In this document: positions 34,589 to 35,459 of the stretch, piece by piece
How the letters are laid out: every line of letters begins with the position of its first letter
Numbering within the stretch: position 1 is the first letter of the stretch
DNA from: a virus
Lineage: Duplodnaviria > Heunggongvirae > Uroviricota > Caudoviricetes
DNA length: 36,227 nucleotides
Virus record (IMG/VR): IMGVR_UViG_638341087_000024
Direction: 5' to 3' (one strand)
The notes under the pieces: model-generated
Seen by the model: only the letters and a program-made list of their open reading frames with translations
Database searches by the model: none
Told to the model about the DNA's origin: nothing
Position numbers and translations under genes: made by a program

Positions 34589-34620
34589 CAGCCTCATACA
34601 GAGGCTGTGATTTTGTATAA
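34589..34620. terminator. Bidirectional intrinsic terminator between D and the convergent accessory gene
   Basis: CAGCCTC-ATACA-GAGGCTG hairpin, T-rich on both sides (TGATTTTGT on +, TTTCATTTTT on -). Confidence 0.6.
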
Positions 34621-34634
34621 TTGGAGCACAGGGA

Positions 34635-35459
34635 TTATTCTTGTTGAAAATGAAGAGAACACTCTATAGGTGATTCTTCATTAAACTGTTCAAATAGCTC
34701 AATCATACGATAACGGCTAATTCCCACTATTGTTCCATCTTTTTTAAAAGACAAACCAATTCCAGCCAAAAGAAATGTTGACTCCAGTTCTTTTTTTAAT
34801 TCTTGCCCCTTGGAGAAAAAATACATTGCACCACCACTCATTCCCTCTGGAGAAGGGCCTTTACTTACCTGTCCTTTATATTTTAAATCTATATTCTTAA
34901 CCTTGTATGTTCCTGTTATTTCAATTTTATTGAATGTTTTAACCTCGGATATTATAGTGAAATACTTGGCATTTTTAAAAAACAGGCCATCTTCGTTAGA
35001 AGCTACCGTTTGATTTACTATTGAACTAGGGCGTTTTGTTCTGTGAATTGTTTGTGTTTTGCACCAGTTTTTAGGGAAGCCTGTCCATGCAAAATGTTTC
35101 TTATCAAATCCAATAAAATTGAAATTATCTTTAAGCGAGAAATAATTTTTCCCATCAAGTATCATATTAAAGCAATCGACAATGACTAAATCATCTTCTT
35201 CAAAAATTCGATGTCCTATAGAGATACTAGTCAAAGCAAAAAATTCACCATCAGAACCCAGTATGTAAATATTTCTGATGTCATCTTTATCCCTCAGAGC
35301 ATGAGCAGCAAAAACCACATAGTGTGATTGCTTGTAATATATAAACGTTCCAGTCGATGAATAATTATAATCGCCTAGTTCATTTCGTATGTAGAGCGGA
35401 ATAACAAATTTTTGTGATTGTCTATCATAACTATCAGATTGATATTTAAAGTCAGTCAT
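34635..35459 (-). CDS. AT-rich accessory gene encoding a trypsin/DegP-like (S1-fold) serine-protease-like protein
   Basis: 274 aa; candidate catalytic triad in canonical order: His in VVFAAHAL, Asp in EEDDLVIVD, Ser in GMSGGAMYF (GxSGG). Strongly AT-rich compared with flanking D and ogr. Confidence 0.55.
   Translation of the reverse strand: MTDFKYQSDSYDRQSQKFVIPLYIRNELGDYNYSSTGTFIYYKQSHYVVFAAHALRDKDDIRNIYILGSDGEFFALTSISIGHRIFEEDDLVIVDCFNMILDGKNYFSLKDNFNFIGFDKKHFAWTGFPKNWCKTQTIHRTKRPSSIVNQTVASNEDGLFFKNAKYFTIISEVKTFNKIEITGTYKVKNIDLKYKGQVSKGPSPEGMSGGAMYFFSKGQELKKELESTFLLAGIGLSFKKDGTIVGISRYRMIELFEQFNEESPIECSLHFQQE

Follow-up and report, generated by a model that had tools for sequence, protein, structure and literature searches.

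A stand-alone trypsin-fold protease in the gpD-ogr slot of a P2-family prophage is a candidate single-gene anti-phage effector

The DNA analyzed here is a 36,227-nucleotide stretch of a tailed virus of the class Caudoviricetes (IMG/VR record IMGVR_UViG_638341087_000024), hereafter the window, in whose coordinates positions are given unless another element is named. At the far end of the window lies the right arm of a P2-family prophage, in which the late genes D (gpD) and ogr are separated by a cassette carrying a single minus-strand open reading frame (ORF) for a trypsin-fold protein (Table 1). In phage P88 (Xuanwuvirus, Peduoviridae), the same slot is empty and D and ogr adjoin directly; the two flanks are 96-98% identical to P88, and the BLASTN alignment breaks at 34431 and 35597. 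The base composition changes with the boundary: GC content is 0.31-0.35 over 34450-35650 versus 0.50-0.60 in gpD and the genes upstream. The protease ORF has a GC content of 0.326 and a third-position GC (GC3) of 0.25, compared with a GC3 of 0.59 for gpD and a GC content of 0.523 for the remaining window. A first-pass annotation, made from the letters alone, had described a 274-residue, AT-rich, minus-strand ORF between D and ogr, and this description holds, except that its range began at 34589 and took in the terminator hairpin, whereas the ORF itself ends at 34635. The gpD counterpart in the near-identical TUM1880 prophage is annotated by the Prokaryotic Genome Annotation Pipeline (PGAP) as a 365-residue product.

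Table 1. Features of the gpD-ogr region, in window coordinates.
Feature	Coordinates	Strand	Details
Late/tail gene D (left conserved flank)	33189..34418	+	PF05954, E-value 2e-17
Inserted cargo cassette in the gpD-ogr slot	34432..35596		1,165 bp; GC 0.33; defined by BLASTN against phage P88
Bidirectional intrinsic-terminator hairpin	34588..34608		8-bp GC-rich stem, T-runs on both strands; within the insert
Serine protease ORF, trypsin fold (PA clan)	34635..35459	-	825 bp, 274 residues, ATG start
Candidate sigma-70 promoter	35548..35577	-	CTAACA, 18-nt spacer, TG-TATGAT (TG-extended -10); consensus match only
ogr, late-gene activator Ogr, zinc finger (right conserved flank)	35636..35896	+	PF04606, E-value 5e-14

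The cassette carries transcription signals of its own. The hairpin lies 26 nt past the protease stop codon and 170 nt past that of gpD, with folding energies of -14.2 and -14.6 kcal/mol on the two strands (z -3.5 and -3.8), so that one hairpin at the 3' end of the protease would serve gpD as well as the protease ORF. The gene had been described as bracketed by a bidirectional terminator; the hairpin at the 3' end is indeed bidirectional, but the 5' side holds only the promoter-like site, about 89 nt upstream of the ATG. The non-coding arms (176 bp upstream and 216 bp downstream) contain no further ORF longer than 33 residues, and a repeat search found in them a single weak inverted repeat (35494-35509 / 35556-35571, 75% complementary). 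An Rfam scan of 34300-36227 returned nothing inside the insert and only sok outside it. No flanking direct repeats were found at the insert beyond an imperfect 8-mer, which lies at its edges, at 34424-34431 and 35597-35604 (AATTTAGA and AACTTAGA) and is present in single copy in P88; it may be microhomology left by cargo exchange.

The encoded protein (31.7 kDa, isoelectric point 7.0) is predicted to be a PA-clan serine protease that is catalytically competent, with an intact and strongly conserved triad. From its translation, the first-pass annotation had picked out His, Asp, and Ser motifs in the order characteristic of S1 proteases; they are located at AAHAL (His53), EEDDLVIVD (Asp90), and GMSGGA (Ser208). 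A 34-sequence alignment of the close family has 28 invariant columns, including His53 (FAAHAL), Asp90 (DLVIVD), and Gly206-Met-Ser208-Gly-Gly, and, in addition, K104-N-Y-F107, W125/G127/P129, and A232-G-I-G235. The KNYF motif (104-107) is carried by an ordered segment, residues 98-121, and the N-terminal residues 1-25 form a conserved, family-specific segment with invariant Q16, P21, and Y23. AlphaFold2, run on the close-family alignment, modeled two beta-barrels followed by a C-terminal helix (predicted local distance difference test (pLDDT) score 91, predicted template-modeling score (pTM) 0.89). Foldseek gave 424 matches in the PDB at E-value <=1e-3, all of them chymotrypsin-fold enzymes with template-modeling (TM) scores of about 0.52-0.55, the nearest solved neighbors being the quality-control HtrA/DegS proteases; the S1-type fold anticipated at first reading was thus recovered by structure prediction. 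A fold search of BFVD returned only generic RNA-virus 3C-like and sobemo-like proteases (TM score <=0.51).

Profile comparisons place the triad on that of known enzymes. A profile built from the close family (A1) gave only a spurious match against PDB sequences (E-value 0.36), and its hhalign comparison with chymotrypsinogen was not significant, although the His motif aligned. A broader profile (A2) matched factor Xa and trypsin with an E-value of 2e-4, its His and Asp columns falling on His57 and Asp102 of factor Xa; hhalign with A2 aligned GMSGG with the GDSGG motif at Ser195, and AGIG with strand 209-214. The predicted triad is thus both conserved and aligned to His57/Asp102/Ser195, and the protein combines a modeled two-beta-barrel chymotrypsin fold with the His-Asp-Ser order and GxSGG motif of the PA clan. 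No signal peptide or transmembrane segment was detected (the N-terminus is hydrophilic; maximum Kyte-Doolittle value over 19 residues, 1.16), and lacking a hydrophobic N-terminus, a transmembrane segment, and a PDZ domain, the protein is therefore predicted to be a soluble, cytoplasmic protease.

Because it has 98 homologs of similar size down to 31% identity, the ORF is a real gene rather than a chance reading frame. These homologs, found in a word-indexed search, are 260-290 residues long and 31-79% identical, and come from gamma-, beta-, and Campylobacterota lineages (Enterobacterales, Vibrio, Shewanella, Halomonas, Pseudomonas, Acidovorax, Cupriavidus, Herminiimonas, and Aliarcobacter). 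All are labeled 'hypothetical' save one, named 'Trypsin-like peptidase' in UniRef; the exact sequence of the window protein carries the UniRef label 'Trypsin-like peptidase domain-containing protein'. That identity stays near 50% between phyla points to strong purifying selection combined with horizontal transfer. When 1.84 billion representative proteins were searched exhaustively with the profile (cut-off E-value <=1e-3), only 191 clusters were returned, and the 150 matches listed are nearly all single-domain proteins of 240-320 residues, the exceptions being fragments and two proteins of about 360 residues. A wider family of 128 members was aligned, 125 of which are joined by BLASTP at 1e-10; in it, His53, Gly127, Ser208, and Gly209 are invariant and Asp90 is at least 90% conserved. 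The profile search that the first-pass annotation had proposed succeeds through these relatives, 53 of which match Trypsin_2 and 18 Trypsin, so the family is an offshoot, though a divergent one, of the trypsin-like superfamily; the Pfam-type trypsin membership of the window protein is transitive only. In PHROGs, its one match is weak (phrog_30949, function unknown, E-value 0.004).

The slot occupied by the protease is highly variable. The gpD-ogr junction is present in 1,242 of 5,426 complete E. coli genomes (~23%), and the protease cassette in 2 of the 5,426, that is, in 2 of the 1,242 with the junction; the gene is accordingly not part of the conserved P2-like core, as had been surmised. To gauge occupancy, the ranked junction genomes were sampled at even spacing, which gave 44 rows with both flanks joined: 31 of these are empty (~70%, with a span of about 1,130-1,138 bp) and 13 are loaded, as is one more row, matched by its D flank only. 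Together with phage 520873, the sample holds at least eight alternative cargos (loci L013 and L044-L050), including a DUF3800 protein (389 residues); a DUF2971 protein (261 residues) that matches the PADLOC candidate PDC-S31 (E-value 5e-27); a ComF-like phosphoribosyltransferase encoded with a hypothetical protein, its phosphoribosyltransferase (PRTase) domain resembling PsyrT (E-value 1e-7); a YecA-family protein, in the row matched by its D flank; and three unannotated proteins of 201, 340, and 384 residues. The cargo of phage 520873 (933 bp) encodes an unannotated 132-residue protein on the plus strand, and its breakpoints (34446 and 35606) are essentially the same as those of the protease insert. 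Some gpD-ogr cargos are thus recognizably of defense type. As the junction is found both empty and variously loaded, gpD-ogr is a genuine cargo hotspot, which answers the comparison suggested at the outset for this junction. The flanks are core genes, the insert is absent from close relatives and replaced elsewhere by other cargos, its composition deviates, and it brings its own transcription signals. The cassette is, in short, a horizontally acquired cargo that occupies a variable slot in an E. coli prophage of P88-like type (P2 family, Xuanwuvirus).

The exact protein is not rare in draft assemblies, where it was seen on 608 contigs; its hosts include enterohemorrhagic (EHEC)-type E. coli (O103:H2) and Salmonella. 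Eight places were examined, and in all eight it resides in the same prophage, adjoining ihfA. The family as a whole was found in 11 of 185,579 species-representative genomes and on 4 IMG/VR contigs, and tblastn against plasmids gave three weak or partial matches; a scan of viral contigs with a mid-distance subgroup (A4) found no relatives.

Across independent elements, family members sit singly in the moron slots of five prophage types. Homologs occupy the gpA-portal slot of P2-like elements from Pluralibacter (L011), Aeromonas (L032), and an IMG/VR contig (L038); in a Proteus siphophage-type prophage, the gene lies between the tail chaperone and the tape measure; in a Gilliamella prophage, a 31%-identity outlier is antisense between Rz and the small terminase; and in a Shewanella lambdoid prophage, the homolog stands beside a type I restriction-modification (R-M) system with Abi_alpha nearby. 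Outside phages, homologs are found in a Citrobacter integrative and conjugative element (ICE), between type IV secretion system (T4SS) genes; in Aliarcobacter, between TrbC and TraN; in Pseudomonas syringae, on an element with integrase, NikA, and ParA; and in an Acidovorax mobilizable element with a type IIG R-M system, Abi_C, and PIN7. Variable islands account for further copies: in Herminiimonas next to a TIR_2 gene and a type I R-M system, in Halomonas with insertion sequence (IS) elements, RelA_SpoT, and ParA, in Microbulbifer with AHH/Imm11 and Tlde1, and in Bacterioplanes with an IS200-like ORF. Neighbors within +/-10 kb of 20 loci from independent elements were clustered all against all, and apart from phage backbone genes and N6_Mtase, no neighboring gene is common to three or more of the 20. 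The N6_Mtase (R-M) family itself occurs in three loci that represent two independent elements, L037 being the same Shewanella prophage as L005. With no conserved partner in the 20 loci, the protease gene therefore appears to move and function alone, and the description of the insert as compositionally foreign and single-gene stands, both against P88 and in this comparison. The family is small and highly mobile, and its members, stand-alone proteins of about 270 residues, occur singly on prophages, ICEs, and defense islands.

Some family copies show features of their own. In Acidiphilium and Terasakiispira, the protease is split (L033, 417-704 and 3800-4411; L034, 9947-10818), and these fragmented copies appear pseudogenized. 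In two islands of marine gammaproteobacteria, weakly IS200-like Y1 transposase ORFs flank the gene (L028, 10935-11696; L042, 7778-8617 and 10109-11092) and may be the means by which it travels outside phages. An 81-residue ORF lies immediately upstream on the same strand in two Aeromonas-type P2-like elements (L032, 9627-9872; L038, 9700-9945).

Although a single-gene S1 protease could not be placed among defense families at first reading, the wider family gives it probable kin. Trypsin-like proteases fused to HamA, Avs1a, LmuA, or defense reverse transcriptases (DRT) cleave a metallo-beta-lactamase (MBL)-fold pro-nuclease encoded upstream, leading to DNA degradation (Tuck et al. 2025, PMC12799240); these trypsin-MBL modules, found in Hachiman (HamMAB), AVAST/Avs, Lamassu (LmuA-protease), and DRT systems, are proven defense proteases (PMC12799240). 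A PADLOC scan covering the 128 wider-family members matched the LmuA model (PDLC03855) in 62, with a best E-value of 1.6e-15, two RT-Protease_XI models in 14 and 8, PDC-S45 in 9, PDC-M35A in 8, HamA in 3, and Avs1b in 1, at the level of the domain only: about positions 7-200 of 425 in LmuA, its N-terminal protease portion, 34-123 of 483 in HamA, and about 333-466 of 506-510, the C-terminal protease part, in RT-Protease_XI. NCBIfam names were assigned to a few wider members, namely Avs1b and HtrA/DegS, and one LmuA-like relative (P0113) lies on a contig of only 1.4 kb. By sequence, the wider family therefore appears homologous to the trypsin-like module fused in Lamassu, Hachiman, Avs, and retron-XI systems. 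The window protein and the trypsin-MBL modules share a putatively homologous cytoplasmic PA-clan protease domain and mobile, defense-associated contexts; the window protein would thus share ancestry with a proven defense module but fails its defining architecture. Its position outside the characterized defense families, noted by the first-pass annotation, is unchanged, with the refinement that this probable homology makes it not wholly unplaceable.

The window protein lacks the C-terminal domain of Lamassu LmuA and has no adjacent LmuB, and no SMC-like neighbor was found in any family context examined. Retron type XI, a single-gene RT-protease system in PADLOC, has a related trypsin-like domain, matched by distant relatives of the window protein only; its reverse transcriptase domain and its non-coding RNA are both missing here. 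HtrA/DegP/DegS were rejected, as the window protein has neither a PDZ domain nor a signal or anchor sequence. Compared with HtrA/DegS/Deg (S1C) and V8/glutamyl endopeptidase (S1B), to which identity is only 11-17%, it is predicted to be cytoplasmic and has its own N-terminal segment 1-25 and KNYF motif. The P2 morphogenetic protease was likewise set aside, the gene being absent from nearly all relatives. A functional precedent is Lit of prophage e14, a zinc metalloprotease that is triggered by phage and aborts infection by cleaving a host factor. Lit, as also P2 old, tin, and fun, provides prophage-borne, lysogen-side, single-gene exclusion, which is the model proposed for the present gene; the Lit fold is unrelated, and the likeness is one of functional analogy rather than homology.

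The location also has precedents. The gpA-gpQ locus of P2-like phages and the psu-int locus of P4 are hotspots of anti-phage systems, and gpA-portal houses old and tin (Rousset et al. 2022, PMC9122126). The gpD-ogr slot resembles them as a small locus between conserved phage genes with high cargo turnover, and protease homologs occupy gpA-portal itself in three other P2-like elements; it differs in lying outside the loci of that analysis (PMC9122126).

Several other loci of the same prophage are also of note. At the gpA-portal hotspot of the window (10357-12077, minus strand), a 399-residue AAA_15 ATPase (10878-12077) is followed by a 174-residue OLD-like TOPRIM protein (10357-10881), a PARIS/Gabija-type architecture; in the TUM1880 prophage, which is co-linear elsewhere, their place is taken by a PIN-domain protein and a helix-turn-helix (HTH) protein. 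Just past ogr, a hok/sok-type toxin-antitoxin locus (35941-36227), kept in P88-like phages, comprises a Hok/Gef ORF (36087-36227, annotated in TUM1880 and P88) and an Rfam sok match (35941-36100; 48.2 bits, E-value 3e-9, below the gathering score of 59). ParM-like (319 residues) and ParR-like partition genes lie by the replication gene (window ~8951-10226, plus strand), in keeping with the remark that roughly one in four P2-like phages has a putative partition system (Rousset et al., PMC9122126). Beside a recombinase gene (Resolvase/HTH_7), a tail-fiber and fiber-assembly segment (~25025-26894) runs in the opposite orientation to that of TUM1880 and partly diverges from it; this segment looks like an invertible host-range switch. 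Finally, window positions 194-1011 have no match in the TUM1880 prophage and contain two unannotated minus-strand ORFs (209-649 and 646-1008) for which Pfam gave no convincing match.

Taken together, the contexts of the family (hotspots and islands) and its probable distant homology to defense-associated protease modules make the protease a credible candidate for single-gene anti-phage defense. On these grounds, we give a probability of roughly 55% to the reading that it is an effector of inter-element conflict, most likely acting in anti-phage exclusion or abortive infection. The first-pass suggestion of defense or exclusion cargo thereby gains in strength, its standing being circumstantial. 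In the proposed course of events, the gene would have a promoter of its own, reading antisense to the late genes, and would end at its own terminator, so that it is probably expressed in the lysogen. On infection, the protease might be activated by binding a phage product or by oligomerizing, and would then cut either a particular protein of the phage or a host protein that is essential. Recognition or gating could involve the N-terminal 25 residues and the 98-121 segment with KNYF. The models for this scheme are phage-triggered Lit and the oligomerization-gated trypsin-like modules of Hachiman and Avs, and lysogen expression, proteolytic activity, the defense phenotype, the trigger, and the substrate are all inferred. 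What the analysis shows is the gene, the insert, a variable slot, the fold, a conserved triad, the lack of any conserved partner, and the occurrence on mobile elements and in defense contexts. More tentatively, and with the balance tilting against it, a sensor-less, partner-less protease of about 270 residues may by itself constitute a complete anti-phage (or anti-plasmid) immune system, its protease domain, with the conserved N-terminal segment and KNYF, both recognizing a phage product and executing the response through cleavage of an essential protein of phage or host.

Several observations weigh against a defense role. The trypsin-MBL protease requires sensor-driven oligomerization, and its isolated domain is inert in cells (PMC12799240). 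Those enzymes are fused to a sensor or scaffold and act on an MBL substrate, whereas the window protein is a 274-residue single domain with neither; no MBL-fold gene was found in the annotated near-identical prophage or among ten unannotated neighbors scanned. The window protein itself has no match at E-value <=1 in Pfam or NCBIfam and none among the PADLOC models, and no paper in the searchable literature mentions it under its accession, WP_000129162. Promoter-like sites in the region are not more frequent than expected from shuffled sequence. Two homologs lie in T4SS operons, co-oriented with the tra genes, an arrangement atypical for defense, and a tblastn search covering 50,697 deposited phage genomes found none that carries the gene.

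Among the alternatives, the one that survives best, though we consider it unlikely, is an accessory role outside element conflict, such as lysogenic conversion, virulence, stress proteolysis, or carrier maintenance. Fitness or virulence factors are a common cargo of prophage morons, EHEC-type E. coli and Salmonella carry the exact protein, and the closest solved structures are quality-control proteases. A host-specific virulence factor would hardly be expected in genera of marine and other environments, among them Halomonas, Shewanella, Microbulbifer, Herminiimonas, and Aliarcobacter, however, and neither the lack of a signal peptide, transmembrane segment, or PDZ domain nor the recurrent placement in defense hotspots and islands suits such a role.

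Slightly less probable again is a counter-defense protease, which would degrade a host immune protein or a protein of a competing element so that its carrier can establish itself or replicate. Presence on phages, ICEs, and mobilizable elements alike would agree with this, as would the co-orientation with tra/T4SS genes in the two conjugative elements, and a sensor-less protease of fixed specificity is better suited to be an inhibitor than a triggered suicide enzyme. Yet the P2-like placements, antisense to late genes or in gpA-portal with old and tin, are not early-expressed positions, the family also resides in chromosomal defense islands beside R-M and TIR genes, and its probable sequence relatives are defense effectors.

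A split system, in which the protease activates or destroys a pro-toxin or pro-nuclease partner encoded elsewhere in the host or prophage, strikes us as improbable. Its appeal lies in the putatively homologous defense proteases, which act on and co-evolve with a dedicated pro-nuclease (PMC12799240), and in the second cargo locus of the same prophage, with its AAA_15 and OLD-like TOPRIM genes. The TUM1880 prophage, however, pairs the same protease with a different second-hotspot cargo, and neither a co-occurring gene within +/-10 kb of the 20 loci nor an MBL-fold gene was found; the solitary movement of the gene between very different elements speaks against any fixed partner at an unlinked site. 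A core phage function, for instance as a morphogenetic protease, or a decaying passenger might be suggested by the position among tail and late genes and by the two fragmented genome copies, but the absence of the gene from P88, from every deposited phage genome, and from nearly all junction-bearing prophages, and the full-length ~50% identity with 28 invariant close-family positions, which rules out general decay, effectively refute it.

The fold-level UniRef label and the existence of prophage hotspots with defense cargo (PMC9122126) are established knowledge. What seems to be undescribed in the searchable literature is the stand-alone family as a candidate system, its probable tie to the fused defense proteases, and the gpD-ogr hotspot; only fused trypsin-MBL systems were found there, and no stand-alone trypsin-like defense genes, nor do the trypsin-MBL papers themselves mention one. 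Proteolysis is a recurrent logic of bacterial immunity, seen in trypsin-MBL pairs, the caspase-like Canu, gasdermin activation, and Lit. To our knowledge, all trypsin-like cases characterized so far require a sensor fused to the protease and a pro-enzyme that serves as its dedicated substrate. A protease with a phenotype of its own would, if confirmed, show how minimal such systems can be and supply a new trigger-substrate pair, and an 825-bp gene with three obvious active-site residues is a compact genetic handle. Were it instead counter-defense or conversion cargo, the gene would still encode a highly mobile and unstudied protease that pathogenic lineages of E. coli and Salmonella carry. If the more tentative reading, of the protease as a complete immune system, is true, the family would be a new single-gene defense family hopping among prophage moron slots, ICEs, and defense islands across Proteobacteria, and the protease might be the free-living form of a module that Hachiman, Avs, Lamassu, and retron systems took up later. 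The gpD-ogr junction, most of whose cassettes are unannotated, is itself a good place to look for additional systems, and on the same condition it would be a further defense hotspot of P2-like phages.

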